Shown here piece after piece: positions 10,549 through 42,657 of a stretch of 64,000 bases of DNA. Position 1 is the first letter of the stretch. The number at the start of each line of letters is the position of its first letter. The notes below the pieces were generated by a model that saw nothing but the letters and a program-made list of their open reading frames with translations, did no database searches and was not told where the DNA came from. This stretch comes from Psammoneis japonica. Lineage: Eukaryota. The DNA lies in NCBI GenBank assembly GCA_008632985.1, contig QPGO01000012.1:1-64000 (forward strand), written 5' to 3'. The translations under genes and the position numbers were made by a program.

Positions 10549-10649
10549 CCAGAGTGACTTCCTTTTTTCAAGCATGACAAAACCCAAAACAAAACGGCCA
10601 CCATTGCCATCATTGCTGTCGTTTCCACTTTTGAAATTGCTTTCTCACA

Positions 10650-12350: not shown

Positions 12351-14046
12351 TCATTCAGTTGGCGTTGCTTCTGGCACACCCTTGACACGAGTCACGGGTC
12401 GATCAATGTGAACAGAGTCGGTTTGAGCATTGTGCAAGGCGAAAAAAGGCCGGGACAAGTCTTCACAGAATTCTCGCATGCGCTGTTTGGCGTCCTGAAG
12501 CGAATCCGCCAAAAAGTACACGGGCTGATAGGTTGTAATGGGAAATTCTTGATAGGCAGCAACCTCTGGATCCCAAGGCTTAATTTCGGGTGGGCTATCC
12601 GCACCAGGATGCTCGTCACTGCAGGCATACTCGAGTTCACCAAACGAAGAAAGGAGTCCGGCGCCATAGGCCTTGTGTAGTCCGTCCTCTTTGCACAATC
12701 CAAACTCCACAGAAAACCAGTAGCATCGAGCAAGTTTGAGAACATCTTCATCGGATGCTCCTAAACTGGCCAGACCAATCTCTTGAGAGAAATCCGCAAA
12801 ATCCCGATCGGCAAACATGGGCGCATGTCCTAAAAGCTCATGACAAATATCAGGCTCGGGCGTGTAGAGAGGCTTGGAGTGATGGCGAATGTACTGCGTG
12901 GAAAAGAAGACTCGAAAGGCAAGGCCATTTAAAAAGTCACGAGACGAAAGCAAATCCGCCACGGGACGCATTCGAAAGTTTGTCTGTTGTTGCAGGAATT
13001 GGCTAATGTCCTCCTGCTGAGGAATGCAATCCCGGCCGTAACCACAATTTTCTTTCATGAGTTGCAGCGAATGTTTGTATTCTTTGCAGGCGTACTTTTC
13101 CCAGAGTCCTTCCATCTTGTCCCACACGGCACCCCACGTTGCAATCTCGTCGGGAGTGTATTCCACGTGCGCAATTGACTTGTGCCATTTATGATTCTTG
13201 GCCGACTCGGTCAATGCGGCCCTTCGTTCTCTGTAGGTTGCGTCGTTGAAACCGGGGTGATCCGACTCCAGATCCGTTCCAGCATCAAGAGTGCGGTCGG
13301 CAACAAGATCAAGCTCGGATATGTGCCGAGGAAACCATTGCACCTGAATTCGACAGAGTGTATTACAGAGCACAGCAGTATTGTGAGACAACACAACATC
13401 ATTCATCGCCATATCACCCGTGACAACAACATCTGTTTCACAAAAGTTGAAATACCTCAAGCTCTTACCTTTTTTTCATCCAGAATCAGCAATTTATCCG
13501 TCAAGGGCTTGAGAGCATCCAGTAGCTTTTCCACGTTTTCATCTCCACGGCTGCCATCAAAGTCGACAAAGAAATCAAACCGCTTGATGTTCCCCCCCGA
13601 ACTGTCAATATGTACCGGCCGCGATTCAATTCGAGTCACATTGACATCATACTTCCAAAAGAATCGAAGAACATCGTGAAGTACGCCCACTCGATCCTTC
13701 AGTTCCATCAAGACGGATGTTCTCGGGTGTCACCTGCATAAGTCATAGAGCCGCCATTCTTTTTCTTCTTTTCCGACTGTGTCAGTACGGGAATTTTGCC
13801 ATGGAACATTTCCCACTCCATGGAGCTAGAATCGGTTCCATGATCAATGTGATGTTCCACCATGTTGTCTTCGTTTAAACGACGGGCTTCTGTCGAAAGC
13901 AAGCTCGCTCCACTACTACTCCGCCCCGCGCCATCACCACGAATGGATGAAATGCTTCTGACACTCAACGACATGATGTGAGACCTGCCAAGTCTAGTAG
14001 CGATCAACTTGCGGCTCAAGGACCGAGACGCTAAAGTCAGCAGCAT
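12351..14046 (-). CDS. PAH: Phenylalanine 4-hydroxylase with N-terminal extension and ACT domain; intron 13344-13468; apparent 1-bp frameshift near 13726
   Basis: ACT motif NVTRIESRP; catalytic [25 protein letters not shown] and [14 protein letters not shown]. The GTAAG/CAG intron joins [17 protein letters not shown]. Confidence 0.93.
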
Positions 14047-20404: not shown

Positions 20405-23224
20405 ATGGACAACGACAATGACGAAAACGACACGTCCATACCTTCCATTTTTGATAGAATTTGTTTTGAATTTGGAGAAAAGGATGCCATAGTTTTTTCA
20501 AACAAGCAACCGCTTTGCTACTTGGAGCTCCAACAATCCTATCTTGCCTTGGCGTGCCAGCTCTACTTTCGATATCGTCCAACGTATTGTCTTGTGGATG
20601 TTCGAGGTGAAGTTGCCGCTGAAGCCGTCTCTATGTTGGCGTGTATGAGAATTGGCGTCCCGTTTGTACCCGTCAGTGCAGACACACATCATGCCGGCAA
20701 GAGGCTAGAGGCCATTGTCAGCTCACTCCGTAATGCCAGTGCAAGCGACTCTCGTATTGTTGCAATCGTCCAATGCGACAATGACAAGGATCCTATTCTT
20801 ACGCATTATTCAAATGTCAATGTGCACAATGTTGTTTATGTCAACAATCGAGGCGATCTCGTGGAACCCATGAATGTGTCCGACTCGCTACCCAACTGCT
20901 TTGAAAATGACGAAATGTACGTCTTGTTTACGTCGGGTACATCGGGAAACACGCCAAAAGCCGTGGTGGGTTCGGCCAAGAGTACGTTGCATCGGTTGAA
21001 GTGGTTTGCAAAAGAATTTCCCTCCAAACAAAACACGGTCATTGCACGACGAAACAAGCTTGCCTTTGTCGATTCCATCACGGAACTGTTTTCCGCACTC
21101 TTGTTTCCTCCGGCTGTCTTGTATGCCATTGACGAGTTGGAAGAACAAGGAATCTCTGCTATACTGAATACACCTTGTACCAGAGTCACCATGCTTCCAT
21201 CGCAACTCTCTCAGTTGTTAATGCTTGCTCCAACGATGCCATCATCCCACTCGCTCGAGATGATTGTTGTTTCGGGCGAACCTTGTCCCTCTAATCTACT
21301 TGGCGACTTTACCAAGCTTTTTCCAAACACTGTGTTGATCAACTTATACGGACAGACAGAGTCTACGGGGGACGTCCTTTGCGCAGTCTTGACGGAAATG
21401 AATCATCCCATTGTGAACAATGTCGTTTCGGTGGGAAAGCCAATTCCGGGCGTGTCCTTACAAAACAACAACGAATTGGTGGTATCTGGAAATTTAGCCG
21501 CGCGGTACTTGCATTCCAAAACTCACTTTACATCATTTCCTACCGGTGATGTTGGGTTTGAATACAAGGGCAACTGGTACGTTCGGGGTCGATTGGATGA
21601 TGTGTGCAAGGTGAATGGAATAATCACGTCTCCGTCCGAAGTCGAAGCTGTTGTCATGGATGTTTACAACATTACATCCTGTGCGGCGTGCATTATCGAT
21701 TCCAATGTGTACGTGTTGGTAGAGCAGCAAGTTTCGTTTAGTAGAGAGAAAATGAGAAACGCTGCTGGAGTTCCTTGGAATCTTGTTCCAAAAGAGATGT
21801 TTTGCGTCGAATCTCTTTTTCGCTCCGGGAGCGCTGGTAAAATCGATCGAGCGCGAGTGCGTCAACATGTAATGGACATTCTTTCAAAAGGCAAACAGCT
21901 GGACCGAGAAGAAAGCCAAGACGAGGTTGATTTGATTTTGCATGAGGTTCTTGGCGTACAAGTTCTTGATTCCACCAAGTCGTTTGTTGAGATGGGAGGA
22001 GACTCGGCCCTCGCCATTACACTCTTGTACAAATTGCGAGCGGCCGGGAAATGTGGAAAGGAAATGACAGCATGGCACATTCTGAACGCGAATAGCATTT
22101 GTGAACTCAAGGGTTTGATTCTTGATGAACGATGCTTGAAGCGAAGGCGACCAGAGAATGAAATCCAGGTTCAAGAGCCCGCATTTGAGAAAAGGGAGAT
22201 TCTGCACTTGACAGAGGGACATGTTGCAGTCCAGTTTAAAGCTTGTGTAGATGCAGCACCGCTGGTACACGGTGCTGACATTTACGCTGCCTGCCAGGGT
22301 GGCATCATCCAAAGGATTGTGGATGGAAACGAGGTAGCGTCAGTTTTCGATTTGGGGTGTAGCATTCAAGCAGATTTGATCGTCGTGGACGATTCCATCA
22401 TTGCGTGCGGGTATGATTCGGAAAAGGAGGACGGGATTGTAGCGGCCATTAAACTTGATTTATCAGAAGCAAAATGGACCAGGAAAATGAATGGAATGAT
22501 TAAATCTCGCCCTGTCCATATCGATTCCTCCGTCTACGTTTTAGCTGGGAAACACTTGCACATTATGAGGGCTCAAGATGGTGACGATACAGCTATACTT
22601 GATCTCCCTTCTGGAACTGAATCTTCGCCTACAGTCGCTACTACCGAGAAAGCCTCCCGATGTATTGTGTACGCATTTAGTGACTGGGATGCAAGCTTAG
22701 AGATGGTGACAGAATCCACGGTTACGCACATTCCTGGAGTTGAGTACCCGGTGTACTCTGATCTTTTAAATACAGATGACAATACTGTGTTTTTCGGTGA
22801 TATCTGCGGCCATCTCCATGCCGTCAATGTCAGTAGTGGCTCCGAAAGAAAACATCAGGTATCAAACAAGCCCATCTTTAGCGGACCAGCACTCCTCTCA
22901 AATGGAACGATTGTATTTGGTTGCCACGATGGAATTGTTCGTTGTGTCAACAACTCAGATTTATCCATACGCTGGGAATATGATGCTCGTTCCGTGGTGT
23001 ACTCGAAACCTCTTGTGTTGGAGGACGATTCGATTGTTGTCTGTTCGACAGCCGGTGATATCATCAACCTATCAAAGTGCGGAGAGGAAAGTTGTCGGTG
23101 CAAGATTGATGGGGAGATATGGTCAGATCCCGTCATGATAGACAAGAGTCGAATAGCAGTGGGTGGTCGGGACTCAAAACTGCATATTGTTGACCTGGGC
23201 TGTTCTACCGCAGAGCGACAGTAG
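20405..23224 (+). CDS. AASDH: AASDH/ACSF4-like NRPS-type enzyme (adenylation + phosphopantetheine carrier + PQQ-like beta-propeller)
   Basis: YVLFTSGTSGNTPKAV, NLYGQTE, TGD, GKIDR, carrier motif MGGDS and C-terminal propeller repeats. Confidence 0.88.
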   Translation: MDNDNDENDTSIPSIFDRICFEFGEKDAIVFSNKQPLCYLELQQSYLALACQLYFRYRPTYCLVDVRGEVAAEAVSMLACMRIGVPFVPVSADTHHAGKRLEAIVSSLRNASASDSRIVAIVQCDNDKDPILTHYSNVNVHNVVYVNNRGDLVEPMNVSDSLPNCFENDEMYVLFTSGTSGNTPKAVVGSAKSTLHRLKWFAKEFPSKQNTVIARRNKLAFVDSITELFSALLFPPAVLYAIDELEEQGISAILNTPCTRVTMLPSQLSQLLMLAPTMPSSHSLEMIVVSGEPCPSNLLGDFTKLFPNTVLINLYGQTESTGDVLCAVLTEMNHPIVNNVVSVGKPIPGVSLQNNNELVVSGNLAARYLHSKTHFTSFPTGDVGFEYKGNWYVRGRLDDVCKVNGIITSPSEVEAVVMDVYNITSCAACIIDSNVYVLVEQQVSFSREKMRNAAGVPWNLVPKEMFCVESLFRSGSAGKIDRARVRQHVMDILSKGKQLDREESQDEVDLILHEVLGVQVLDSTKSFVEMGGDSALAITLLYKLRAAGKCGKEMTAWHILNANSICELKGLILDERCLKRRRPENEIQVQEPAFEKREILHLTEGHVAVQFKACVDAAPLVHGADIYAACQGGIIQRIVDGNEVASVFDLGCSIQADLIVVDDSIIACGYDSEKEDGIVAAIKLDLSEAKWTRKMNGMIKSRPVHIDSSVYVLAGKHLHIMRAQDGDDTAILDLPSGTESSPTVATTEKASRCIVYAFSDWDASLEMVTESTVTHIPGVEYPVYSDLLNTDDNTVFFGDICGHLHAVNVSSGSERKHQVSNKPIFSGPALLSNGTIVFGCHDGIVRCVNNSDLSIRWEYDARSVVYSKPLVLEDDSIVVCSTAGDIINLSKCGEESCRCKIDGEIWSDPVMIDKSRIAVGGRDSKLHIVDLGCSTAERQ

Positions 23225-24011
23225 CAAGATGAATGGCGAGAAGACGCGCCCCGAGAGCTTGAGAAGTTGCGTCGATCAGTGGACATGATTTCAATTACGA
23301 GAGGCTGTGGTCTTACGCTTGACAGGGACTGGACGGCACCACATACTGCAAGGTCGATGCGTCTTCTGTAAACCCCTTGGTATGGCAAGGTGAAGAGATG
23401 TTGAGTCGAACATTGCCTGACGCGGGACAAGATATTCCAAGATACGGGCAAGTAGTTTCTCTCCGAGCAATGAAGCAGCAGTACGAGTTATCTCCTTCGC
23501 CCTAGCAACACACGCGCAATTTTCTTCCTTCAATTTCGCCATTTTAAAGGGAAGCTTCTTTGCGTCTTCGTAGTGTAGCAAGAGCTTTGACGATCTCGCT
23601 TTTCCGACGTCATGATGGGCGCTTAGAAGCCGATGTGTCGATCAGGGCGTATCTTTTCTTCTTGAAAATGATCGTAGATGAAACCATGAGGATAATGAGC
23701 CCTTTCATACAAACACACATTTCCTTTGCTTGTCGGGATCTTGAGTACTACTCTCTCGCTGGTTGGTCAAGATGAGCTCAACCCGATGAAGGCCCAGTGC
23801 CATTTCCCTGCCTTACTCTTGCCACTCATAATCGAAGTTTTGCAGCGGTTCAAGAAAATCTGAAATGTTATCGGTACGATATGCGATGCGCGAGCGAATT
23901 CGCTAACGATTTTGATTGGCCCTCGAAATTTTCGCGATTAGCGTGGAAGAATATTTCCATTGCCGTGGACAATAAAAATCCACTTCGCAGACACTATACA
24001 TTTCCATCACC

Positions 24012-24758
24012 ATGTCAGATGAACCAAACTGTCTTTTGATGTGCTCGCTGTGCGCCAAGCCAGTTACAAATACTGGTCAGCCTCTCAAGAAATGTGGAGC
24101 GTGCAAACTCCGCACGTATTGTGACAAAAAGTGCCAGATCATCGATTGGAAAGTGGGTGGGCACAAGCGATACTGCGGCACCGCAGACCACCCAAACAGT
24201 GTCAATCACCAGCCTTGGTGTGCCTATCTAGACAGAGACCCTGAACTTGACGCGGAATGTCTCGTAGAAACCCATAGGATCAAAACGAACCCTCGTGAGC
24301 TCATCACGACAGGAATGAATACCTGCATGTTACTTGCCATCAAGACCCCAAACGAGATAACGGGTTGGCATGCTTCTTCTGAGAGCCTTGTTAGATACCG
24401 ACAACAGATCCAAAGAAAGCTCAGTTCAATAGCAAAGGAGGATTGTATCTCGATATTTCTCGTTCCTGGTGAAGATAGAGAGAAAGACTCGTTGGTTCTC
24501 AAGCGGACATGCCGGACCATGCGAGAATTGCCGTGGACTGATCCCTGTTACTCAAGAGACCTCATTTTCAACTTTTTAAAGCAGTTCACGTGGTTCGAAG
24601 ACGTCCAGATTATGTCGCCGGTCGACTCGTACAAGGACTTTGTTGTCTTTGATATGGCACACAAGCGCCCATACAGCTTTAGCAATCCAGCACTGTTCGA
24701 TCAGGGCTGCGCCTTTGATGCGAATGTCGACGAGTCTCTAGCTAGAATGTCCTTGTAA
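24012..24758 (+). CDS. MYND zinc-finger protein
   Basis: CSLC...CGACKLRTYCDKKCQIIDWKVGGHKRYC. Confidence 0.85.
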   Translation: MSDEPNCLLMCSLCAKPVTNTGQPLKKCGACKLRTYCDKKCQIIDWKVGGHKRYCGTADHPNSVNHQPWCAYLDRDPELDAECLVETHRIKTNPRELITTGMNTCMLLAIKTPNEITGWHASSESLVRYRQQIQRKLSSIAKEDCISIFLVPGEDREKDSLVLKRTCRTMRELPWTDPCYSRDLIFNFLKQFTWFEDVQIMSPVDSYKDFVVFDMAHKRPYSFSNPALFDQGCAFDANVDESLARMSL

Positions 24759-25033: not shown

Positions 25034-26299
25034 TCAGCTTGATTCCGCGTCAAGTTCCGCTTTTAGTTGCTCGTAAAGCTGGAAGACTTCTTCTCGATGA
25101 TCGTCGTCCCATGGTGTTTCGTACAAGGCCGCACGATTCATGGTCTCTACCGCTCCCTTCAAATTTCCTTGAGCCTTTAGTGACAGAGCAATATACTTGT
25201 GGACCCAGGGAAATCGCCGGTTCATCTCCAAGGCAGCCTCGGCAGACGCAATCGACTTGTCGTACACACCCTTGTGAAACGCACACTTGGACAGGCCCAT
25301 GAAAACGGCGCGCTGTTGCGGAGGTGTTGAACCCTCGCAGAAACCAGGCATTTCGAGAAGACTAAAGTAGATTTGCTTGGCATCATCCCACTGCTCCATT
25401 TCCTCATACGTCGACGCTTTCATAAGAAGAATTTCAGTGTGCCGCGTCGGACCGTTTCTTAATCGCGTTGGGGGGCCTTGCGATTTCATTTCCTCGTCCA
25501 GCTCTTTCAGCTCACGCTCAGCTTCTGCGTCGACCAAACCCATATCAGTCGCTCGATCATATCTCTCCACTAGCTCTTTAGCTCTGTTCATTTTCGAGTG
25601 TCGCTCGTTGTCAATCTCGATAATTCGATCCAAAAGCTCAATGGCTGAAGAATATTCTTTTGAATGCACAAGAATTTCTGCCTTTGTAATCAAAGCTTTA
25701 AGGTGAGGTTGCGTCGTCCCGGTAAGAACCTTGTCTAGCTCTTGGAGCGCCTCTCGGCGAATGTCTTGAATCTCCTCGCTGCTTGCCTTTCGTTTTCTTT
25801 CCAATTCAATGGCCCTCGTGGCAAGCACCCTTGCTTTTTCTATGGCTCTCTCTTGTACGTTTTCAGCTTCTGACCGGCACATGGGACAGGAAGTCGCGTT
25901 TGGCCTCTGCTGCCACGCCTTGAGACACGCAAAGCAAAACTGATGTCTACAAACTTTCAAAATAACTGGATTCTGAATTTCGGTAGTCAAGCAAATGGGA
26001 CATTCCTCCGTGTTGACGGGTATAATGTCTGCAGATTCGTCTGCCACCTCCAGTACATCTAGCCCGTGCTGTTGTAACACGTGCACACCAGCATTGCAGT
26101 CCGACTTGTGTTGACGCCAGTCCTTCTTCTGGCAGACCTGGGAGCAGTAGTACACGCATTTGCACCGAGAACATCGTTTCGACGCAGCCGCCTTGCTGCA
26201 TTCTTTCAAGTCACATGTGATGCAATCCCGGGGAAGCATGTTGATGCGCTCCTGGATTGGCAACTTCATATTGCTGTTCGCTTGGTCCGCCTCTGACAT
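25034..26299 (-). CDS. MYND + RING finger + TPR-like protein
   Basis: CSRCKCVYYCSQVCQKKDWRQHKSDC; RING CPICL...CRHQFCFACL...CPMCR; helical repeats. Confidence 0.88.
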   Translation of the reverse strand: MSEADQANSNMKLPIQERINMLPRDCITCDLKECSKAAASKRCSRCKCVYYCSQVCQKKDWRQHKSDCNAGVHVLQQHGLDVLEVADESADIIPVNTEECPICLTTEIQNPVILKVCRHQFCFACLKAWQQRPNATSCPMCRSEAENVQERAIEKARVLATRAIELERKRKASSEEIQDIRREALQELDKVLTGTTQPHLKALITKAEILVHSKEYSSAIELLDRIIEIDNERHSKMNRAKELVERYDRATDMGLVDAEAERELKELDEEMKSQGPPTRLRNGPTRHTEILLMKASTYEEMEQWDDAKQIYFSLLEMPGFCEGSTPPQQRAVFMGLSKCAFHKGVYDKSIASAEAALEMNRRFPWVHKYIALSLKAQGNLKGAVETMNRAALYETPWDDDHREEVFQLYEQLKAELDAESS

Positions 26300-27019
26300 G
26301 ATATTTGGTAAAAAAAATATACAAGTAGTCTGAACGAGGTCTTTTCTCCGATGCTACTCTGCTAATAGCAAGCCACCAGAACGGATCTGCAACCTTCACA
26401 CAACGCTCTGGTCTTTGTTGGTCTTTGTAAAGACTTCTCTTGTTCTTTGTTGGACTGCAAAATGGCGTCATGTCGCAGTCAAACTTTTGATGTTTAGGCT
26501 GATGAGCTTCAAAACTCAGCTGGGAATCTATCTATCTCGTCATTTTTGTCATTCTCACAGCTGACATCAGAGGGAGACCTGAGCATCATCAACATGCTGC
26601 AGTGCTGTGTCATTGCCATGTGTCACACTGTCTCTGACATCTGACCGAGTGAGCATTGGCTTCAAGAAGGCAAGCTGTGCCCCCAGCCACTGGGCCACAT
26701 CAACACTTCGCACCACAATTTGTTTGGGGGTTTGGATCCAGTGCACAGCGGGACAGGACAAAATGCCCTCTCTGACAGTGCTGAACTGCAGCAGAACCCA
26801 AGCATTTGAAAGCTTGTTCTGCATTGTTGTTTTCAGCTGGAGCATGAGATTCCATCACCCCCTCTCACCCCACCCTCGCCACCAGCCTCATCATGCCACT
26901 GCTGGTTCTTGTTCTCAGCTCAGCCTTGCTGCTGGCGCACTGCTCACATGTGTTGGTGACTGTGAGTTTGTTCAGCCCTGTGCAGCAATGTGTGTGCTGG
27001 TCATCAGAGGCCACAATGT

Positions 27020-27810
27020 TGTGGTTTGCTCTGATCTTTTAACTGCAGGTGACAGCCCTGTGTTTTTCGGTGATGTCTGTGGCCACCAGCTGCGTGCAGT
27101 CAATGTCCGCAGTGGCTCCGAAAGAAAACATCAGGTGTCAAACAGGCTCATCTTTGGCAGACCAGCACTGCAATCAAATGCAATGATTGCATTTGGCTGC
27201 CATGGTGGAATTGTTTGATGTGTCAACAGCTCAGATTCATCCGCACGCAGGGAATGCGATGCTCACTCTGTGGTTTGCTTGAAACCTCTGGTGTTGGAGG
27301 TTGGAGAACAACTCAATTGTTGTCTGCACAACAGCTGCTGATGCCGCAAAACTGACAAAAAGCAGAGAGAAAAGTTGTGCTTGGAAGGTTGATGGGGAGA
27401 CATGGTCAGATCCCATCATGACAGAGACAAGAGTCGGATGGCAGTGGGTGCTGGGGACTCAAAGCTGCATGTTGTTGACCTGGGCTGTTCTGCCACAGAG
27501 TGACAATGGCAAGATGAATGGCGGGAAGACACGCCCTGCAACAAGAGAAGTTGTGTTGCAAAATGGACATGATTTTTGCTGCGAGGGGCTCAGGTCTTGC
27601 ACTTGACAGCGACTGGAGGATGGTGCCAAATGCCACAAGGTCGTCGCATCTTCTGTCAGCCCCTTTGTGTGGCAAGGGGCAAGCAATGTTGAGTCAAACA
27701 TCACATTGTGCAGGACAAGACATTCCAAGTTGCTGGCAAGTGGATTCTTGCCAAGCAGTGAAGCAGCATGAGAGCTGTCAACACAAGAGCAATCTTTCTT
27801 TGCCTGTTCC
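27020..27810 (+). pseudogene. Converted duplicate of the AASDH 3' end and downstream sequence (source ~22750-23530)
   Basis: Colinear alignment, e.g. agtggctccgaaagaaaacatcagg is shared; stops and frameshifts. Confidence 0.9.
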
Positions 27811-28599
27811 TCCTCTGACATGACAAAGGATTTGCAACACAACGCTCCATGTGGGCCTTTGTGGAGACTTTTTGCTGGAACGATTTTCGATTCTGGGAAA
27901 ATTGTGAGCAACAACTGCCGACACCCACAATGGCAGAGCCCATGGGTGGAGTGGCCCATCCACAACCATCAAAAATTGTGTCCAAAACGGAGACGACACG
28001 CCGTGGGCCATCACCATTGTGACGGAATCAATCACCCACACTCCATGCTCCTGCCGTGTGATGTTCAACATGGCAAAGTACATCACATGAACCATCGCAG
28101 ATTAAAATCTGGATCGAAGTGAGTGGTGGTCTGTCTGTTGCATCAACGTACAATGGTTTCTGCCGGTGTGCACTCCCCAGTGTTTGGGAGTGTAGAGGCA
28201 TGCACAACAACACATTTGGAAATGCAGACCTCGGCATTTTAAATTTTTCATGTGTGTGATCATTGTTTGTGAGTGTCTGAGAATTTTCTTTCTTCCAAAT
28301 GCTGGGGAGTGAATTTCTGCGCACCTTTTGTCTTTTGTCCTGTGCCGTCATCACTCACATCACCGCAACAATCACCATGGTCTTGACACCGCAGCGCAGC
28401 CCTCTGCTGCTGGCAATCCTCCTTACAATCTCAGATCTGTGAGACCTTTTAAGGCATCCCCTTTGATCATCCTCTCCTCAATCTCTCTCCTTTCAAAGAT
28501 TTGCATCGTGATTCACTCAGGCGAGTGTTGCCGGCAAGAGAACACAGAGAAAAGATCTCGTGAAGAACATCAGACACAAGGCAGGACCCAGACCCAAAC

Positions 28600-31500
28600 G
28601 ATCATGTCAAGATGGTTGAGATCCCTTCGAGAGATGTCAAGGATTCCCCCATCCTTGCAGGTGCAGTGGGTGGAGCTGTGGTCATTGAGCATCGATGCAC
28701 CCAAGTCAACGGAATTGCCAGTGCCTGCATCGCCCACATGCCAGCCTGTGAGAATCTAGATTGTACGCAGATGCTGCTTCTCAAGCCATCCCTCCAATGC
28801 CATTTGTCGGTGCTGGAATGTCGTGTCCAGTGGAGCTCACAGAAATGTCGACTGTTGGCCAACGTGATGATGCCATTCGCCGCTGTTGACAAGGACAATC
28901 TCAGTCAGGCTGACTGGTCCGTCTGCCATTTGGAGTGGATGGAAGCAAATCTACGAGGTCTGGCCTTTCAATTGGAACAATGCACTGGCAAGACTTCAAG
29001 CAAAAATGGTAGAGAAGAAGACAGTGCAGACTCAAGGAAGAAGTGACGGGTGTCTTTTGATGAAGAAAGCCAGGTGCTCTGTGATGCCCACATGGAAGAT
29101 TCTTGTCTTGATCCAATTCACATCTGGGAGGCCCATGCCAAATTGGATGTTTTGCCACCAGGAACATGGACCAACAACAACAAACCTGTTCACAAGCATC
29201 ATGCTGAATTTCAATCTCACATCATGGTTCCCAAGAAGCTCTGTGAGCTGCTCTTTCACAAGCTTGTGGATGACATCATGGAGAATTGTCAAGAAGCAAT
29301 CCCCAAACTCCACTCAGCAAAGCCATCCCAGCACTGCATTGACACCCCAAAAGAATCCTGCAAGGCCTGGGTGGAGCAAGACAAGGAGTCGTCCTCATCA
29401 TCTGGAGATTCCAAAATGGTTGTCAACATTGCCCGTGCGATTTTGTGTGAGACAAGGCCCAACAGTTGTCCGTTCATGAACTGATGCATCATTTCATTCC
29501 AACAAGTCCTCACACAGCAGCATTTGTGCAACAAGTGTCCCAAAATGCGAGTCATGCCAGAGCTGGGCCCCAAGGGAATTGCACTGGAAGGAGGTGCCAA
29601 AGCCATGGTGGAACTCCACTTTGGCCCTTTGGAGGGCAGACTCGTCAATCGTGCCAAGGATTTGAAAAAGCGAGTGCCACACAGCAGCAACAACAAGCTC
29701 CCACAGGCTGTCAGGATTTTGGAAATCGAATGCATCACCTGGTTTGGACTTTGGCCAACCATTGTTTGCACAGCCTGTGACCATCAAAACGGCATCATCA
29801 TGGACAAGGAGACCTGCATTCGCCTCATGCTTGAGGAAGCACTAAAGCGACATGATTCATTGCCAAATGCCAACTTCTTTGATCAAATGGGAGCCCACAC
29901 CTTGGGGTGTGGCTGTGGCAAGGAACTCATTCTCAACCATTGTTGACAACAAGCCAAGAAGAAGAATGGATCCTCCTCCATTCTGCAAGAGCACATCAAA
30001 ATCATGAAACGACCTCTGCTTCTCAGTCAAATGCAAAGGGAGTTTGATCATCAGTGCAGATGTTGCACAACAGGAGGTTGTTTCTCTTGACATCGTGATT
30101 CATGTCTCTGCATGCACTGTTCACTTTAAGTGGGTCATGCTCCTGGACCCCACAGCTGTCCTTAAACTCCGACGGATGCAGCGAGGTTCTGCCAGTTGCC
30201 AACCTGAGCCTTGACTGGAATTTGCTCCAACAATCCATGTCTCCGTGTGTGGATTGATTGGATGACGAACGTGTGACCCTCTCTGTGACATGCTGAAGAA
30301 CCGTTGGTGCCCCCAGTGCCATTTATCACGAACAGACTGTGCTGCACTGTGACAAGAATTCTTGTCATTTCAATGCAGAGAAATGGTCAGGAGTGTTGCC
30401 CTTCAAGCCCCCCAAGAAGCAACCACGTTGTCATCCCCTTTGCAGCAGGGCCCTGGCAAGATCAAGGACATGGGAAACAAAATGATTAAAAAGCATCAGA
30501 CCAAGTGGCAAGCAACAGTGTCTTCCTCTGAGAAAGTGACTCCAGAAGTTTTGCGTCCGGTGGATGCAAATTTCTGACATTTGGTGCTCTGAGTGTCATT
30601 GTTGCCTTGCAGCTTTTGCACAACACAAGATGTGCCATCATTGCACATGACAACAAATCCAGCAATGGGTTGCTTTCATCCTGCAGCCTTCATCTGCCAC
30701 CTGATTTCAATGCATCGCATCATGCCAGCTGCTTGTGGGCATTGGCCATGAAAGCCACTCCTGGAGCTGCTTGAGACACAACTTGCTTCAGCTCCAGCAC
30801 TGCCATGCTTGTCACAGAACTGAGTGTGACATCTATCCATTTTCCTGTCCCTGGCAATCTGCTGTCCTCTTGGGTTGTGTGCGCAATGCCTTTCAAAATG
30901 TCGTGGGGTTCTGCGATGGTTTGTGCTTGGAACTCAAGCTCCAGAGTGTGATTCTTGGAGTCTGAGGAAGCCCAGGCCATCAATTTTGCCATGTCATTCT
31001 TGGAAATGGAGGTCACAAAATCAATGACAACATCTTCCCCATCATTGCAGGTCTTCTGTGAATGTGCATGACACCAACTTCATGAGGGAAGCTTTCAAAA
31101 ATCTCAGGATGGGGTCAAGAAGTTGTTTGTGGCAAAGTCCAGAGGTGAGAAGGAATGTTGCAGTTTCTGAGTGTGCTGCATTGATGGTGACTGCGTGCCA
31201 CACAGGTTGCCATCAGTCTCCCTGTCTTCCTTTGGATGATGCTGAGGAACCCACATCCTCTTGTGTTGGCAAGACCATTGCAAGTGCTGCAGACCCAGCA
31301 CACCTCACAGTTGGGGGCAGTGGAAGTTTGCTGTTGACTGTTGGCAGGCAGCGCAGGTTGAACCCTTGCCCACATCTGCTCCCTCCACTCCCACGGATCT
31401 CCCTGGGGCTGATGTTGAAGTGTGTCTCCCCCAAGAGCTGGTGATGAAGAAGTCGGTGGTGCTGCTCCCTCAGATTCTTCATCTTCAGATGGATTTGCTC

Positions 31501-34500
31501 CTCACTCCACACTTGGCTTCTGTGCTCCCACTCCCTTGTAACTGGAGCAAGTTGTTGGGAATCTCTGGATGGACCCAGAGTGCCTGGTTCAAGAGCAGAG
31601 CCAACAATTTCAAAAGGCTTTGCAGTGGCAAGCTCAGGTGAACAACAACAATTTGGCCATGTGAGTTTTGGCTGTCAAAGGTGATCTGCTGGTTGATGCT
31701 GACATCTGCAAGAATTGCAGACAAGGATGCAAGAGATTCTTTTCTTGGACATGTTCATGCCTGGGAGTCTGACCCCACTGGCGATTTGCAGAATCATGTG
31801 AAAGAGAAGGTTGCCATGCTTGAGAGTCATGCATCACCAGCAGGGCACAGTGCATTGGAACACAGGGTGTCATTTGACAGCCCTTCTGAGATCCATCCTT
31901 GGCTGTGCCATGCCAAAATTTGGTGGCCATCTTTCATGAGATGTTGCTTCTTTGCTCCATTCCATTGGAGCATCCACTTCATCCCACAAGAGTGCTTCAG
32001 CTGTCATGAATTGTTGGTCATTGTGCAACTGCCAGTCGGCATCAGAGGAAGGACAATTTAGATTCAGTTGATTCATTTGGGCGTCCTGCTGCATCCATGC
32101 AGCTTTTCACAATTGTCCACCGTCTGTTGCAATTTGCAATTTAGATGTTTGCCTTGACATCAATTGCTCTTTTAGAACCCCACATTGTTTCGCATGCTCC
32201 CAATTTTTTTTGCATGTTTCCCTCCAACACCAATCTCTGCCCTTTTTTGTGTGACACTGACAGTGTGTTTTCTACTTGCACGATTTCCACACATGTTTTT
32301 CATGCCGACCTCTCTTCACTCACAGTCACAATGCCCCGTCACTTCTGTTGGTTTTTCCACATGTTTCCTGTGCACTTTGAGTCCTGCAGTTTCACCCAAA
32401 AGTGCCAAACTGATGAAACTGCAGGACTCAAACCCCATGAAATTGNNNNNNNNNNNNNNNNNNNNNNNNNNNNNNNNNNNNNNNNNNNNNNNNNNNNNNN
32501 NNNNNNNNNNNNNNNNNNNNNNNNNNNNNNNNNNNNNNNNNNNNNNNNNNNNNNNNNNNNNNNNNNNNNNNNNNNNNNNNNNNNNNNNNNNNNNNNNNNN
32601 NNNNNNNNNNNNNNNNNNNNNNNNNNNNNNNNNNNNNNNNNNNNNNNNNNNNNNNNNNNNNNNNNNNNNNNNNNNNNNNNNNNNNNNNNNNNNNNNNNNN
32701 NNNNNNNNNNNNNGACAGCGACAATGAACGACAGGGACGACAGTGACTGCAGTGACAATGACAGTGACGACGACAGCAATGATGACAGCGACAACAACAG
32801 CGATGATGGCAGTCACAACAACGGCAATGATGACAGTGACGATGATGATGACAATGACAGAGAGCGCACCAGCAATTTGTTTCTTCCATTTCTTTTTCTC
32901 GACATTTGTCTCTGTGCCCCATGCTCACGTCCCCCCCCCTTTTCACTCCCACTTTTTCACATCCATGCAGTGCTTGCTCTTGACAATGGTGCTGAATGTT
33001 TGCCAATGGTCTCAGTGGTGAATGCATCTCCAAAGCTTGATCTAAGAAAATTGTCGAAACACAACGTCTTTGCCAGGAGTTTCTGTCCAATCACAAATGG
33101 TCCCCCTCTCCTGACTTTCTGGCCCTTCCTCACATGCATCACAACTGTGCAAACCGCAGTTGCAAATTTTTTGAGGAAGGTTTGGCAGCAAATGATGTGA
33201 TTGTGTGTTCTCTTGGTTGTGCTGACAGTTGTCACCATGTGAAAAGCCGTGGTTGGCTGTGCAAGATTCTCCCCAATGGCAGGTGCAAACTCAAGTGCTG
33301 CAAGCTCACCAAATCCTTTTCTAATCTCTCCAAGTTTGGAAAGAATCTCCAGGCTGTGCTTGATGACCTCTGCAAAATGATTGTTTCCAACAAGTTGGGC
33401 AACCAAGCTTGTTTCCTGAAGCAAGTTACTTTTGCGTCCAAGGTGAATTTTTACGATGAACGTCAAAGCATTGCTGTCACCATGGTCAACTGTTGCATCA
33501 TTCCTCATGTTCCCGCCAATTTTGGGAATGTTCGGCACTGGACCAGGCTCACATTTGGTGAATGCAACAAGAGGAAAATGTTCACAATCTTTGCCCATGA
33601 CATCCTCACCATGTTTGGCACCAAAGAGAAGATCAAGTCTGGTGATCTTGCAAAGAAACTGGTCTCCAAAGCTGGTGATGGTGCAAAGGATTTTGTCAGC
33701 ATGCCTTCCAAAAAGAAGGGAGTTTCAATGCTGTGTCAAGAACAGGTGGAGAATGAGCTCCACATCACCTTCAAGCATTCCTGCAGCAACACAAACAGTC
33801 AGAGATTCTGCAATCTCATTCTCGTCAGATCTCGTGTTCGTGACCTCACCTGCCAATGCCTTCCCCAAAAGCAGAAGAAACATTTTAAATCTTCTGCTCT
33901 GAGAAAGTCCAAGAAGAAGGCACCATCTGCTGTGGACAACAACAGTCCTGCCATTGCCGGCATGTTGCACCACATGATGTGACAGATTTGCAAGATCCTG
34001 TGAATGGCTGACATTTTCTCACCTGTGTTGACTCTGTGTTTTCCCTCCAGGGTCACTTGCACCATCTGCACCCCCCTCCAATTCCACCAATGCACCCCCA
34101 TCTTCTTCCACTGGTCGACCATCTCCCACTGACGACGCTGTCCCTGCTCTCTCTTCTCAAGCTGCAAATGTCACCACTTGTGTTGGCATTTCTGAAAACA
34201 ACTCTTCAGTCGATTGCAGTTGTCCCGACATGGTTGCTGCCCCTCCAGCTGATGATTCAGGTGATTTAAGCTCTGCAGCCCCAAGGCATTGGGATGATCT
34301 AGAAGAAAAGTTCCCCCTTGGGAAGTTGTGTGAAATTGCATCTCCCGTGGAGGTGTCCAGGTGCACCCCTCATCTCTGTGTCTGGTGTGATGCTGATGAT
34401 GACAAAGACAACTCAGATGCTGAGGAGAATTTCTCCACTGATCGTGAGCTAAACCCACACCACTTCCCTGTGGATTGCCACCTTGTTGATGATCCACACC

Positions 34501-37500
34501 ACCGGGAACACTCTTTTGAGACTTTTGCTCCTTTGCCCTCTGCCACAAGTCACAAATGAGAGCTTGCAGTCATGCCGCCCAATGCTCAACAACTGCAGAA
34601 TGATGCAACTGTCATGCGCTCCAGACACCCCTTGTGGAAGAAACATTTTTCCTTGCTTTGCATTGACCTTGGAATGATGACACTGTTCATCATGGAGTGT
34701 GGTGAGTCCAATCCCAAACACGATGGGTCTTCCATTGACTGCAATGATGCGCCAAAGGTTTGAGTGAATTTTGGTTTGTGCAGTCAGAATTGGGTGACTG
34801 GAGAGGATGGACTGCCAGAGCCTTGTGAGTCGTTTGGTTTTTTGGTGTTTGAGAAGGAAAAGGACCCCGTCATCTGCGCCAAGTTGTTGAAGGCCATGCT
34901 GGCCAACATTTTTGATTGCATGCATTGATGTCATGACAAATTGGAGGTTGACTGTTTTTCCAATCCACCTCCATGTGGCAACAAGGCTTGTGCACAAAAG
35001 CATGGAATGGTGCCACAAAAAGGTCTTGGTGCAATTGCTTGCTTCAATGAGCTGGGAACCATCCAGGTGAAGCCACTCCATGGTCCCTCTGTCCCTTCAA
35101 ACAGCAAGTGGTCTTGCACTCATTTGCATTGCGACAAAGACAACTGTGTCCACAACAGCCACACAAAGACAGGTGCATTGTGCTTCATGTTGAAAGACTT
35201 CGTTGGGAATCTGTTTTCTGTCAAGTTCCTTGCAAACAGCCACGACAAAGCTGGTGAGCACTTTAACAAGAAGTTGTGACTGAGTGGCTTGCGTGCCAGG
35301 ATGCAGAAACATGTCTCTGCCATTGACCATCAACACGAAGAATTTCAAGCCTCATGCAGCAGACCAGTTGCACCCTCACCCAATCTGAATTACCACAATC
35401 CACAACACATGATGTTTTGGATGACCATTGTCTGTGGGAGAAAAAGCAATTGCATGAAGAGGGCAAGACACACAAACTGTTGAAACTTTCAGACTCTACA
35501 TTGCATGACATCATCTGCTGGCAGCCGCATGACAATGCAAACCACCTCAAAGCAATGGCAGTGTTTCTCGATGCCATGGCGAAACGTCCCCTGAGAGACA
35601 AGCAAAGTTCTTGGTGTGGGCATTGAAAGCCTCTTGACAAGACCAAGCCTGGCTCTTGGCTTCTGCTGCAGGTCCCAACATGCCAAGCTTTGGCGGTCCT
35701 TGTGGTGCCAATTGTGACAGCATCTTTGGCATTTCCCACCTCCCATCAATTTGTCTGAATTGACAGTGACATCATGAAGTTTCAGACATTGTGGGGATGA
35801 CATCATGGTGACATCAGACAGTTTCAACAACGACTGTTGAAACTCAAAGTTTCAACAACTTTCAACTGGGAATCCTGGGAAACTGCAAAGATGCGGAAAG
35901 ATTTCACATTCCTGTCATGACACAACACGATTTACTTTGTTTGGGAGCTCGCAACAGTTCTGTTCAGTCATGGATTCTACAAAGACACTTCAAAGACATT
36001 TTGCAGAATTTCTGTTGAGGCATGCTTGCACACAGCAGTGCAATGTCGGACAGACAACAGTCATGCTTTTTTTGTGATTTGCATGACAAATTGCCATCCA
36101 TGCCAACAATGACAATGACATTTTTCTGATGCTCTCACAGAACAACTTTGCAACAGGCACTCAACGGCATTGTCAACAATGCTCTTAAGAACATGTGTGT
36201 GTAAAGAAAGCTGTCCGGATGAACTCACAATCATTCAACAATTGAATGCATCAAATGATGGTCAAAAAACAGAGCTCAGCATTGATGTGGCATTTTGCCA
36301 TTGAACGAATGCTGCTCTTGGTCTGTTTCATGACTGAACATGTTTGCAATTTAATGATCTAAATGTCTGTGAAGCTCAAAGACTCCAGAACATGTCACTG
36401 TCATTGCTGTCATTGCAACAATGCAACACCATCATGTTGCTGATTTTTGGCGATCGTGCGTGTGGCGTGCACGAAGTTCCCAGTGCAAAAAAATTCAGAA
36501 AATCAAGTTGTCTTGCCATCCATCAGCTTGTTGTGTGATTGCCTTGAATGAAGATGATGTCATTTGATCAAACATTGAAGACACTTCAAAGTTTCTTCAA
36601 AGGTCACTTTGAAGCAGGGCAACAAGCAACGCAACATCACATGCACATCAGCACATCTTTCTGAAGCACCTTGCTCACCCGCCATTTCTGTGCCACGACC
36701 ACAACACCTCCGATGTTTGAGCAGTTGTGGGATCAAACATGGTGTCTTCACCAAAATGCTGTTCCCAGATGAGGTTGCAGTGATTGGACCCTTTCTCAAG
36801 TCTTGGCCTTTGGCTGGCAGCAACACTTGTGTGGTGCTCACAGTGCTCACGCTGAGCCATGCTCGTTTGTGACCATTGGAAATGAAGGCTTTCAGGGACA
36901 GATGTTTTCCATGTCTGCTTCAGAATTTGCCTTCAAGGAAACTTCAAAGTTTCTTTGAAGTGTCAACAAATTTGTCAACGACTGTGTCACATGATCTGTG
37001 CCACGCTGCTGCTCCCACCAGCCTTTCCTGTGCGTGTGTGCCGCTGTTTGCATGAAGAGAAGCTCTTCAACAAAAGTCAAGTGGGTCGCCTTTTTGTCAT
37101 TTCATCCAACTTTCTGCCACACACAATCATGTGCTGAGCTCAAGCAAATGCCCCGGGTTGGAAAGTCCCGCACAATGCTTCACTTCCTTCAGAGTGAGTG
37201 AGAAGAGCCCAAGCTTTTCGTTTTTCCCAGTGTCAACCCACATGGCATGACCAGGCAGCTGCTTCTTTTTGTGAAGAGCTGTTTTGTGGCTCTCAAGCAA
37301 TCCTTTTCATGCAAGTGAGCATTGCATCTGAATGGACAAGGCAGATTTTTGAGCACTTGTGCTGATTGCATGGTGCACTGGAGCATCTCATGGTTGGTCA
37401 ATTTGGGCCACTGCAGCCCATGATCACCGAGAGAGCCAGCTGGCAGAGAGGCAAGGAGTGAACACTTTTCTGAGGTCTGACTGGCTTTGGCATTTCAAAT

Positions 37501-39584: not shown

Positions 39585-39880
39585 AGGCCTGGTTGGGTTG
39601 GTAGAAATCGGCCGTCTTCAAGCTGTTGGATCTTGACGCCCAGAAAGGTGCCCACTTCACCATCACATGGGTCAAAGACACGGTGTTGCTCATCATTGGA
39701 GACACCCAATTTGGCAATCTCTGCTTCCAGTTCTTGAGAAGATTGACCAGCAAAAACAGCATCATCAACACCACTGCGAGCCACGTGCCCTTGGTGAAAT
39801 GAAGACAAGGGTCTACATCCGACCATGCTTGAGCAGTCCATTGTGCAGATTTTCACAGAAGCACTTTTGAGACCATCAGA
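39585..39880 (-). mobile_element. Copia reverse-transcriptase fragment
   Basis: VDDAVFAG...GEVGTFLGVKIQQLEDGRFLPTQPGL. Confidence 0.75.
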
Positions 39881-42465
39881 GTCCATGCAGCAGCACCAAA
39901 TTGGCATCTGAGTTTGGCTGGGAAAACCATTTGGTGGCCCCGGCTCCCACACACGCTGCTTTCTCCTTGACATCAGCTTGACAGAAGCTGGCTGCACAGG
40001 AAAGGACAAGGTGTGTAGATGACCATGCCACATCACTTGTTCTCAACAACATGGAACATTTTGACCCATCTTTTGAGAAGCCACCGTTGTTTCATTGCCA
40101 TGCCACCATGGCACGTTTGTTTGTGAGTGTGCCCCAACAGACACACATGCACACTGACAAGGCAAATGTGCTTCACTTTGTTCAGCACAGATCCCACTTG
40201 TCTGCCTCACACATTTTATCATGATTTCCATGCAAGCACCCACACAGAATGTCCATGGTGGGGTGAGCTCTGTCAGCTCTGTGCTGACTCCATTGGAGCT
40301 GTGGGGCTGCTGGCAGAAATCTCTTGGAAAGCAGGGCAAGCATCCAATGGCGACATGCCATGAGCAAACTTGGGCACACCGTCAATGTGCTCATGGGCAT
40401 TGTGCATGTGATGATTGCTTGAGTGGCCAAGCAGTGGTGCCAAAGCAAATGCTCAGGACAGGGGGACCTTCTTCTCAAGGTTTGATTCAAATTGAATGTC
40501 TTGATGTGCTCCTGGAATCACTTCATTTCTCCCTTGAGAGTCCTGGACAGAAACCTTCTTCTCAAGGTAAACTTCAAATGGAATGTCTTGATGTGCTCAT
40601 TGAATTGTCTTCATTTCTTCCATGAGAGCCTTCTTTTTCTCTCCTTGTGGGCGTCAATCATGCGTGCAATGATGGTGTCACACTCCTTCTTGGCAAAGAC
40701 AGGGTTGCTCTTGTCCTTCCTTGAGCTCCTCAGTCAACTCATCAAGCAGTGTTGTGTCCAACTCTAGAGCTGTCAAAGGGTGGGTAGAGCACTTTCCATT
40801 GATCAATCGGCTGTGGAAATGATGACCACATCTTGACTGGAGTGAAGTCAATGGAGTCCACTGGCCACTGCTTCCTTGCAGAAAGCCAGATGCACTTGAA
40901 AAAGAATCTGCTTCAAGGCGTTGCAGCTCATGTCACCATGACAAACAGCAACACCATGGTGCAGATGACTGTTCTTTGGGAACACATCTGAAAATGAGAG
41001 CAACTTGCACAAGGCATGAGACAACTCAATGCAATGAACATGTGTGCATCTGGTGGGTCACAAGCAGAGTGGTTTCCAACTACAAAGCCCCATTCACAGC
41101 CACCATGGCTTGCTTGAAACACCACAACATGTGTGTGCACAGCAACCACAGTCAGTGGCATGTCACTGGAAATTGAGGCACCAGCCATTGGCAGATGCCA
41201 TGCAGAGAGTCATCATGGCATGGACTCTTAGTTCATGAAGCAAAGCTTTGCAATTCAGAGCCAGGTTCACAACAAAGAGGGAACCATCAGCTGAGAAAAG
41301 GTGGTCAGAGCTGTCCATGTGACACACACATGTGTGGAAGCACTTGAAAAGCAACTTCTGGAGGACCACTTTGTGAGGTGCTTTTCAATCAAAACATGCA
41401 CACACATCCTTTGGCAGAGCATCTGGGTTGAACATGCATTTGGATGACAGTGATGTTGAGGAATGTGCTCTTGCACAGCAGCACGGTTGTCATTCAGGGC
41501 ATCAATCAAATCAAAGATGTCAAGAGAGCCTAGAGCAATGGGCAATGCTGGCAGAGTCTTTGGGGCACATTGTGGTGCTGGATGTGCAGTGTCAAAAAAG
41601 ATGCTCCAGTTTCCAAACACATGTTGTGTGAATGGCAAGGGAGAAGTGGGCATGCAAAAATGTGCCAACAACAATGATCACCTTAGAGACTGGTGAGCAT
41701 GGAGAGCACCCTTGATTGTTTCATGGTGGTGACATGGACAACCTTGCAGAAGAGCAGAAGTGTGAACAGTGGTGCATTGGCAGGGTCAACAGTTTCCATC
41801 AGAATTATGAGCTCATTGAGGACACACTCCTGCAGCAAGTCCACAGTGTTGTCCTTGTCCTTTGCACGCTTTGAGCTGTCAGAAATCTGTCCCAATCAAC
41901 GACATTTTGCCACAAAGGTCATTGAAGGTTTTTTCAACTTCATGGTTGCAAGAGCACCAGCCAAAGACAACACAGAAATCTTCTCGAGGGTGTCAAAAAC
42001 AGGCTTCTGTTGGGGGTCAAATGCAACATGATGGCAGGTGCACAAATTTTTTGTCATGAACAAACAAAAGTGCAGCCCTGTTCTGCAGGACATGTCATGC
42101 ACAAATGAAAAACACTTTCAGGGCAAAAAATGCAGCAGCACAGGAGCCTTGCTTGGCTCTCACAAACCCCAAAAGCAAGCTGCAAGAATGGCTGCTGTTG
42201 AGCCAACAGCTCCAACAAATGTGGGGCTGACGTGGTTTGATTTGATTGACAGACACACAAACAAAAAAAGTCAGATTGGTCTATTGCTGGATGATGGATG
42301 ACCCTTGACTGAGCTGCAATGCTGTAAAAAAACCACTCTAGTTTTGTTTTGTCAACTCATCTTGTTTGCCATTTTGGTGAGCAGGAAAACATCCAGCCAG
42401 CAGAATGCTTCATCTCATCTCTTCCTGGTGAACAGTGTGAATGGCACAAAGATGTGGCAAAGACA

Positions 42466-42657
42466 TGTGACAAAAGGAATGAACAGTGATGTGGCACACG
42501 GTTCATGCTGCAATGCCCTTGCTTCATCTTAGAACAGTGCATCAACCACACGCGCTTGTTTGCGCAACCATTGCCAAAGACCACAGCCCAATCAGGCCTG
42601 TGGACCTGTCACCGGCAATGCCAGCAATGGCCCTGCCACCGTTGCGCTGCCAAGACA
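42466..42657 (-). repeat. 3' LTR (fully converted)
   Basis: Aligns to 49092-49284; both end ...gcgctgccaagaca. The left boundary is approximate. Confidence 0.8.

Follow-up and report, generated by a model that had tools for sequence, protein, structure and literature searches.

Domain-restricted conversion of TA, and slower loss of CG, in a dead copy of an AASDH-like gene from a diatom

Composition and gene content of the window

Judged from its sequence, the 64-kb stretch of DNA analysed here (hereafter the window) is diatom nuclear DNA, and along it the TA and CG composition, given as dinucleotide o/e, is strikingly bimodal. The normal blocks, 32 kb in total, have a TA o/e of 0.54 and a CG o/e of 0.97. 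Six depleted blocks, comprising 30.5 kb or 48% of the window, display a TA o/e of 0.06, a CG o/e of 0.26 and a TG/CA o/e of 1.8, while the GC content is equal inside and outside them (0.48 in the depleted blocks and 0.48 elsewhere). The edges of the depleted blocks are sharp within 50-100 bp when followed in 50-bp TA tracks. In every depleted kilobase the TA o/e is at most 0.16, whereas the CG o/e varies between 0.06 and 0.74, and at 3001-3500 CG is found at normal density though TA is gone (29 CG vs. 4 TA, all four TA at the edge). The coordinates of the blocks and of the other features are collected in Table 1. The left edge of the block 26501-37500 is sharp at approximately 26,530, and a small less-depleted island is located near 28001-28250. 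Another local exception is a 396-bp element at 4987-5382, which has 24-nt terminal inverted repeats (TIR) and an AGGG target duplication and is TA-rich within a depleted block. The TIR element, which still has its TA, hints at conversion in episodes or else at a recent insertion.

The genes of the normal blocks include those for a hydroxylase, a pseudouridine synthase, a PDZ protein, an AASDH-like protein, zf-MYND, RING/TPR, GT92 and JmjC proteins and an asparaginase. The biopterin-dependent hydroxylase (12354-13475, minus strand) shares 82% identity with an MMETSP transcriptome protein labelled 'Syned...' and 79-80% with Nitzschia proteins. Pfam searches of the depleted blocks gave no credible family in 63 ORFs of at least 120 aa, with three sub-cut-off matches (E 0.002-0.004), and no family in 133 ORFs of 75-119 aa, that is, in 196 ORFs altogether; for the ORFs of the block 26501-37500 the number of domains was zero. 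A recognisable transposable element (TE) protein is present in only one of the six depleted blocks, and no viral genes were seen in them. When 39751-44250 and 44251-48750 were read through in six frames and compared with Pfam, no family was detected despite the Copia-type relic residing there. The depleted blocks lose TAA and TAG stops together with Tyr codons and consequently contain long false ORFs, and transposons in them become hidden from profile searches, as happened here. A tblastn search with all the normal-block proteins against the window revealed no decayed gene copies beyond the known ones.

Table 1. Features of the window, and TA and CG dinucleotides kept in the depleted (or, for the control, the other normal) member of each aligned pair.
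Feature	Coordinates	Strand	TA kept	CG kept	Basis or remark
Parent copy: intact single-exon gene of AASDH/ACSF4 type with an open frame of 945 aa	20387-23224	+			Pfam and homologues
Duplicated parent segment: last ~160-190 codons, stop codon 23222-23224 and ~300 bp of 3' flank	22657-23526	+			BLASTN core 22750-23480
Hypermutated 5'-truncated pseudogene copy	26932-27800	+			BLASTN core 27023-27768, 78% identity to parent
Depleted block holding the AASDH copy	26501-37500				TA o/e 0.02-0.16, CG o/e 0.08-0.69 per kb
Depleted blocks within 3001-11500	3001-4750 and 5501-11500				Dinucleotide o/e, 50-bp TA tracks
Depleted block with the Copia-type relic	39751-49150				Dinucleotide o/e, 50-bp TA tracks
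Depleted block with its edge inside the duplicated segment 52057-54096 / 57030-59059	53940-56750				TA tracks and pair alignment
Frameshifted, stop-containing relic of a Copia-type polyprotein (RVT_2 family)	42849-48519	-			tblastn with 29 homologues
Copia relic, probable 3' LTR (depleted state)	42468-42659	-			Pairs with 49092-49286; together they flank the polyprotein
Copia relic, probable 5' LTR (on or beyond the edge of the block)	49092-49286	-			Still 9 TA; pairs with 42468-42659
Normal/depleted pair	1946-2229 / 3194-3472		0/17	9/14	
Normal/depleted pair	2725-2912 / 10320-10513		0/7	3/12	
Normal/depleted pair	49092-49286 / 42468-42659		1/9	5/9	TA kept is a TTAG
Normal/depleted AASDH pair, extended			1/36	8/45	
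Four normal-to-depleted pairs, pooled			2/69	25/80	
Control pair, both members in normal DNA	52057-53850 / 57030-58815		41/64	87/115	

In the parent ORF, Pfam recognises AMP-binding (E 5e-24, 85 bits, cut-off 29.9) and Beta-prop_ACSF4 (E 3e-38, 132.4 bits, slightly below the cut-off of 133), and the domains reach the last residues of the frame. As homologues it has diatom proteins that share this architecture, the best of them, unnamed, being 51% identical and those of named pennate diatoms 33-38% identical. PP-binding (PF00550) is annotated in many of these homologues, and the alignment shows the carrier motif GGDS without variation. The predicted product fits the AASDH/ACSF4 plan, in which an AMP-binding adenylation part is followed by a carrier and a C-terminal ACSF4 beta-propeller. 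Relatives of the parent gene were also looked for in metagenome contigs. A single-protein scan found none, and among the 80 loci of an alignment scan only L001-L005 were diatom AASDH relatives; these were short and mostly genic, and no depleted block was seen in them.

Self-BLASTN of the window yields a single duplicate of the gene end, in which 22750-23480 aligns with 27023-27768 at 78.4% identity over 747 columns. On the parent side, local alignment extends the segment to 23526 and BLAST with purine/pyrimidine-coded sequence moves its left end to 22657. The wider limits of the copy were obtained with transition-tolerant scoring, its left end at 26932 by the purine/pyrimidine-coded BLAST. Such coded self-BLAST is good only for lengthening known pairs, and its weaker matches (~75-80%) are noise of the two-letter alphabet. 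The copy contains two in-frame TGA codons and frameshifting indels, and reads as a local direct duplicate placed 3.4 kb downstream of the parent. Around 26932-27800 there are no terminal repeats, no target-site duplication and no TE protein; no homology was found past either end of the copy/parent pair, and the copy lacks a poly(A) behind it. The region 26300-27946 is covered by contigs assembled from reads of the public run X1 (word depth ~62), which depart from the assembly by 7 substitutions and 3 indels; where these fall within the copy, not one brings back a TA. A single TG/TA allelic difference was observed in the reads, at 26734. The reads of X1 and the assembly probably derive from one and the same sample, and the check therefore tests the assembly rather than the biology. 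No RNA run was listed as containing 26300-28300.

Another recognisable resident of the depleted blocks is the Copia-type relic. Its ORF at 44666-45277 (minus strand) matches polyproteins of approximately 1400 aa carrying PF07727 (RVT_2) with E 1e-55, and one of these is named from Fragilaria crotonensis. The two segments flanking the polyprotein are probably its LTR pair; a target-site duplication was searched for and not found. Over 195 columns they differ by 40 transitions and 2 transversions, with 3 gap columns. If the pair indeed represents the LTRs, these changes, 40 transitions vs. 2 transversions, postdate the insertion. At 11 of the 39 CA/TG steps, CA in one member stands opposite TG in the other, and such swaps are not predicted by a simple model. 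They may possibly have arisen where an ancestral TA or CG was hit independently in each of the two copies, the 'normal' LTR lying partly at the edge of the block; two-step paths via TA or CG are another possible cause.

Fate of TA and CG in the depleted copies

The changes in the AASDH copy have a direction. As the sequence-only reading had assumed, the intact ORF polarises them: its domains run to the end of the frame, the copy has TGA codons and frameshifts, and at the 51 codons with a differing amino acid the 29 diatom homologues favour the intact gene 36 times and the copy 9 times, with 6 ties. Nine of the differences fall in TA-containing codons, where the same homologues polarise 8 as TA ancestral and leave 1 ambiguous, and TG or CA was in no case found to be ancestral. 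The copy keeps the ancestral residue at positions 887 and 927, both lineages having changed, which indicates that the duplication is old. When 22752-23224 is aligned with 27025-27509, the 21 parental TA are represented in the copy by 13 TG, 5 CA, 1 TA kept (in TTAA) and 2 other dinucleotides (CC and GA). The earlier hand count had been 19 of 21 converted (13 TG, 6 CA, 1 other, 1 kept); the 13 TG and the TA kept in TTAA stand, but CA has to be lowered to 5 and the others raised to 2. For the 23 CG the recount was identical to the earlier figures, 16 having become TG or CA (8 each), 4 being kept and 3 changed otherwise. Over the whole duplicate (BLASTN core), 29 TA gave 19 TG, 6 CA, 1 kept and 3 other, and 39 CG gave 13 TG, 14 CA, 8 kept and 4 other.

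Counted per strand-site, A>G occurred in the AASDH copy at 26/58 of the A preceded by T vs. 29/320 of the other A (Fisher p 5e-10). Outside TA and CG, 83 of 593 sites have changed (14%), with transitions and transversions in almost equal numbers (41 and 42, respectively). For the AASDH copy alone, a steady context bias approximately 10-fold above the background would suffice. TG outcomes exceed CA outcomes in this copy (19 vs. 6, p 0.015), but no general strand bias is claimed since the other pairs lean the opposite way; the bias differs between loci.

The four normal-to-depleted pairs, compared with the control pair, reveal a process that acts at the DNA level, is restricted to domains and turns A:T into G:C specifically at TpA, accompanied by a slower C>T process at CpG. 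The pooled pairs differ from the control with p 2e-15 for TA and p 8e-10 for CG, and within the depleted copies TA and CG retention differ with p 3e-6. Conversion to TG or CA accounts for 59 of the 69 pooled TA and for 46 of the 80 pooled CG, and both TA that were kept are in YTAR. TA disappears both faster and more completely than CpG decays; the earlier wording, by which its loss was at least as complete, was too cautious. The counts for the extended pairs were made with transition-tolerant alignment scoring, and those for the AASDH core and for 53751-54096 with neutral scoring.

The members of the control pair lie outside the blocks and share 88% identity over 1.8 kb. The control duplication continues into a depleted block, where the left copy keeps TA up to 53934 and has lost them beyond. 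Within 53751-54096 the left copy has kept 4 of the 16 TA of its partner, every one of them located before 53935; the affected stretch past ~53,940 takes in the opening ~92 codons of a copy of a JmjC gene. Since the control pair is unaffected and the same duplicate is converted only past ~53,940, the trigger is position and not duplication. In a 113-bp copy with 91% identity all five TA are lost, and none of the eight CG has changed to TG or CA.

An independent, outgroup-polarised demonstration, in this case on a TE, is provided by the Copia-type relic. It was scored at columns with at least 70% agreement among at least 6 homologues. Conserved Tyr (TAY) is kept in only 1 of 27 columns, 9 being now Cys and 7 His, which corresponds to TAY>TGY/CAY, whereas other conserved residues are largely kept (Phe 17/23, Trp 18/21 and Gly 41/46). 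Tyr retention in the relic is on a par with TA retention in the AASDH copy. The sequence-only reading had described the AASDH copy as a captured host-gene fragment hit just like TE sequence. The likeness to a TE is borne out by the tyrosines of the relic; capture is not, as neither TE termini nor a TE protein lie around the copy.

The loss of TA depends on the flanking bases. Relative to normal DNA, TA retention is 0.72 in TTAA, 0.31 in CTAA/TTAG, 0.15 in CTAG, 0.03-0.12 in mixed contexts and 0.01 in RTAY. An additive per-strand rate governed by the base 3' of the adenine (Y > G > A) reproduces most of the context classes, the fitted per-strand rates being ~0.16 for A, 0.95 for G and at least 2.3 for C and T; retention in CTAC/GTAG is under-predicted (0.04 predicted vs. 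0.12 observed). At polarised sites the choice of strand is in the predicted direction and not significant (YTAY 10 TG/4 CA, RTAR 4 TG/6 CA, p 0.21). CG retention, by comparison, is flat, 0.17-0.39 across all 16 NCGN contexts. In the reads two haplotypes are found at 27917-28215, and 11 of the 12 differences in 27947-28185 are exchanges between CpG and TpG/CpA, with zero TA differences.

Proposed mechanism and rival explanations

Taken together, we consider it likely that the AASDH copy is a dead duplicate in a putatively silent domain, altered by TpA-specific transitions and by a slower loss of CpG, the former being perhaps the work of a TadA/ADAT2-like deaminase that would serve as a chromatin-recruited defence. 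The truncated duplicate would have come to lie in a sharply bounded, putatively silent domain, where each TA would turn into TG if the adenine of the plus strand was struck and into CA if that of the minus strand was struck. Such conversion would continue until essentially only the unfavourable contexts (TTAA, CTAA/TTAG) survived. The second, slower process would remove CpG by C>T, most simply through deamination of 5-methylcytosine; the loss is attributed to this base because diatoms methylate silent DNA and TEs at CpG, for the TEs by DNMT5a as described in the cited source (PMC9998398). Targeting is by domain position rather than by sequence origin or by mere duplication: host-gene fragments, the Copia element and unidentifiable DNA are treated alike and the paralogues outside are left untouched. 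The chemistry that we infer is enzymatic: a TadA/ADAT2-like deaminase favouring 5'-T-A-Y would turn adenine in DNA into hypoxanthine. The enzyme would be recruited by chromatin state and would act as a genome defence, in the manner of the TpA hypermutation of Bigelowiella natans.

It has to be considered whether a passive and chronic bias could lead to the same end. A base modification of silent chromatin, for example 5-hydroxymethyluracil or 5-formyluracil at TpA beside 5-methylcytosine at CpG, might mispair steadily, and old DNA would then drift towards a state free of TA and CG. The age of the AASDH copy, with its 14% change outside TA and CG and its 42 transversions, is in keeping with such drift, these blocks clearly lose CpG chronically and are still polymorphic for it, and the CA/TG swaps of the LTR pair fit a continual making and destroying of TA and CG. 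Moreover, T>C at R-T-A through thymine modification would formally leave the same signature, indistinguishable from A>G at T-A-Y. However, TA is already gone where CG is intact and the overall divergence low, the LTR pair shows the excess of transitions given above, and a TA o/e of 0.01-0.06 requires a rate far above that of CpG. The unconverted TIR element in a depleted block also suggests episodes instead of constant pressure, and a literature search on 5-hydroxymethyluracil and diatoms gave, among the matches listed, no report in diatoms, these matches being all on dinoflagellates. We regard chronic drift as unlikely.

The remaining explanations are far less probable. Truncation at the 5' end together with inclusion of the gene's 3' flank is common among retrocopies, and the copy, which shows both, could be derived from a transcript edited from A to I by an ADAR- or ADAT-type enzyme before retro-copying; according to the preprint on B. 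natans (bioRxiv 10.64898/2026.01.13.699255), editing enzymes prefer a U ahead of the edited A. Editing of RNA would be expected to leave A>G on one strand, whereas TG and CA outcomes occur together in the one AASDH copy and both strands have thus been struck, and the copy is not followed by poly(A). Conversion also halts inside a DNA-level segmental duplicate and follows the edges of domains rather than those of transcripts, it fills blocks of 6-9 kb whatever their content, and the two LTRs of one element differ after insertion. An edited retrocopy is accordingly very improbable. Equally hard to uphold is a duplication-triggered, RIP-like mutation by a DNMT4/RID-type enzyme. Several of the converted segments are duplicates, C>T at CpG is present, and DNMT4, related to the fungal RID, is widespread in diatoms (PMC9998398). 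But the dominant change destroys TA, which RIP makes from CpA, only the copy within the block is mutated while the parent is intact, the 1.8-kb control pair outside the blocks is unaffected, and A>G is beyond the reach of a cytosine methyltransferase. The blocks are also compositionally uniform and mostly devoid of recognisable genes, as they would be if they were base-calling errors at modified bases or foreign DNA that had always been without TA and CG. Against this, the k-mer contigs from the reads (depth ~62) match the assembly, N runs of 133, 268 and 186 bp in the window suggest that the assembly is a short-read scaffold, and the host-gene fragments and paralogues that lie inside the blocks display polarised conversion in place. 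We find an artefact or a foreign origin highly improbable.

The AASDH copy and the duplicate straddling a block edge are clean natural experiments, polarised by outgroups, in which the target is set by the location of the DNA and not by its identity and the loss of TpA runs ahead of that of CpG. The flank rule, with TTAA spared and RTAY erased, offers a concrete specificity for the testing of candidate enzymes, and a natural DNA adenine deaminase, if there is one, would be of interest to base editing. A much more tentative proposal, which we put forward as a speculation with the chances rather against it, is that diatoms possess a natural chromatin-guided DNA adenine deaminase, of TadA/ADAT2 type or with another deaminase fold, which would prefer 5'-T-A-Y, spare TTAA and scramble irreversibly any DNA of a silent domain, be it a transposon, a virus or a stray host-gene copy. 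Together with B. natans this would amount to an ancient, SAR-wide defence by A-to-I conversion in DNA. If true, such a deaminase defence would be the mirror image both of RIP in fungi and of restriction by APOBEC.

Comparison with known systems

RIP of ascomycete fungi is C>T mutation, mainly at CpA, which creates TpA, needs duplication and mutates both copies. The diatom blocks resemble its products in that a defence-like hypermutation consisting of transitions only has affected putatively silent or repeated DNA and left compositionally aberrant blocks behind. Unlike in RIP, TpA is here destroyed and the changes fall mainly on A:T pairs; duplication does not suffice to provoke them and its two copies are not affected alike, and the blocks have kept their GC content. 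The process cannot be assigned to the RIP family, because its direction is opposite and it does not depend on duplication. The CG part of the signature is like the CpG decay of methylated transposons in vertebrates and plants, as it proceeds by CG>TG/CA, has no flank preference and is polymorphic between haplotypes; methylation is presumed here. Such decay, however, explains less than half of the signature and is unable to remove TA. As for the enzyme, in the native substrate of TadA and ADAT2-ADAT3 the edited A stands between a 5' U and a 3' pyrimidine (UAC in the anticodon loop of tRNA-Arg), a context that resembles the 5'-T-A-Y preference proposed here. DNA editing by natural ADAT2 is known to us second-hand, as cited in the B. 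natans preprint (bioRxiv 10.64898/2026.01.13.699255).

Region-targeted hypermutation at A:T pairs was unknown until that preprint of April 2026 on one rhizarian alga, and in literature searches, which gave no TA>TG hypermutation in diatoms, it was the only relevant item. According to the preprint, 231 of the 302 nuclear mutations in mutation-accumulation lines of B. natans were located in two integrated viral regions, where all but one were A>G/T>C and these were on TpA; the rate was approximately 1000-fold above the background, in some lines only, and an ADAT2-like enzyme was proposed (bioRxiv 10.64898/2026.01.13.699255). The two cases have much in common. In both, TpA changes to TpG/CpA in discrete regions (NCLDV and virophage DNA in B. 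natans), the long-term signature consists of clustered windows poor in TpA and rich in CpA and TpG, and many of the affected sequences cannot be annotated. There are also differences. The host is a diatom (stramenopile) and not a chlorarachniophyte (rhizarian), and the depletion is far deeper, with a TA o/e of 0.02-0.08 over 48% of the window vs. 0.45 in the NCLDV region and a cluster cut-off of 0.43 in the account given for B. natans. The substrates include fragments of host genes (AASDH, JmjC) and a Copia element, whereas those described for B. natans are viral DNA. Coupling with CpG decay and dependence on the flanks, with TTAA spared, are seen here; the main text of the preprint is without the words 'CpG', 'flanking', 'trinucleotide' and 'diatom'. 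The mutations of B. natans were measured in real time, and the diatom case is known from its sequence footprint alone. With so fully developed a footprint in a diatom, the process would seem to be common across the SAR supergroup, or to have recurred there at the least, and it can shape half of a genomic region. By all appearances the diatom case is of the same kind as the TpA-targeted hypermutation of B. natans, previously found in that one unrelated alga only.

CpG decay among haplotypes and CA/TG swaps between the probable LTRs

At 27917-28215, contigs assembled from the reads of the public run X1 separate two haplotype variants, with depths of about 42 versus 31 and 43 versus 39. Nearly all differences between them are exchanges of CpG with TpG or CpA and, therefore, CpG decay is still segregating in the TA-depleted block that holds this region.

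The probable LTRs of the Copia relic (42468-42659 and 49092-49286) differ by 40 transitions and only 2 transversions. At 11 of the 39 CA/TG steps the dinucleotide is swapped, CA in one copy being TG in the other, which the simple model of TA conversion to TG or CA does not predict. The adjoining ORF with an endonuclease/exonuclease/phosphatase (Exo_endo_phos) domain is free of TA depletion and could be either a gene of the host or a non-LTR element's endonuclease.

Features in the window
Feature	Position	Details
TIR element	4987-5382	396 bp; 24-nt terminal inverted repeats, 92% complementary
Palindrome-like inverted self-match	2629-2928	300 bp, 77%; normal sequence
Short tandem/low-complexity repeats	32714-32880; 54100-54605	depleted blocks
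Long spurious ORFs (examples)	53703-54998(-); 33041-33979(+)	depleted blocks
Exo_endo_phos ORF	49296-50186	starts 10 bp from probable LTR end
Segmental duplication	52057-54096; 57030-59059	2 kb; zf-MYND gene and JmjC gene start
zf-MYND gene, first copy	52345-53544	
zf-MYND gene, second copy	57227-57976 plus 57980-58504	split by a stop
Additional zf-MYND genes	23976-24755; within 25037-26353	

TIR element and other repeats

The TIR element contains nested inverted repeats and has an apparent 4-bp target duplication (AGGG). It is rich in both TA and CG despite the TA-depleted block around it, which suggests a MITE-like insertion that either is younger than the conversion or has escaped it. A converted relative of the inverted self-match is present in both orientations at 10320-10645. 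The two regions of short tandem or low-complexity repeats weakly resemble each other in purine/pyrimidine coding; that at 32714-32880 adjoins an N run, and its translation gives D/N/S/T-rich runs.

Spurious ORFs and the zf-MYND genes

Since TAA and TAG have been erased from the depleted blocks and TGA is the sole stop remaining, many long spurious ORFs, of up to 432 aa, are found on both strands, making these blocks a trap for gene callers. In addition to the copies in the segmental duplication, further zf-MYND genes are found in the window, and the zf-MYND genes thus form a local family.
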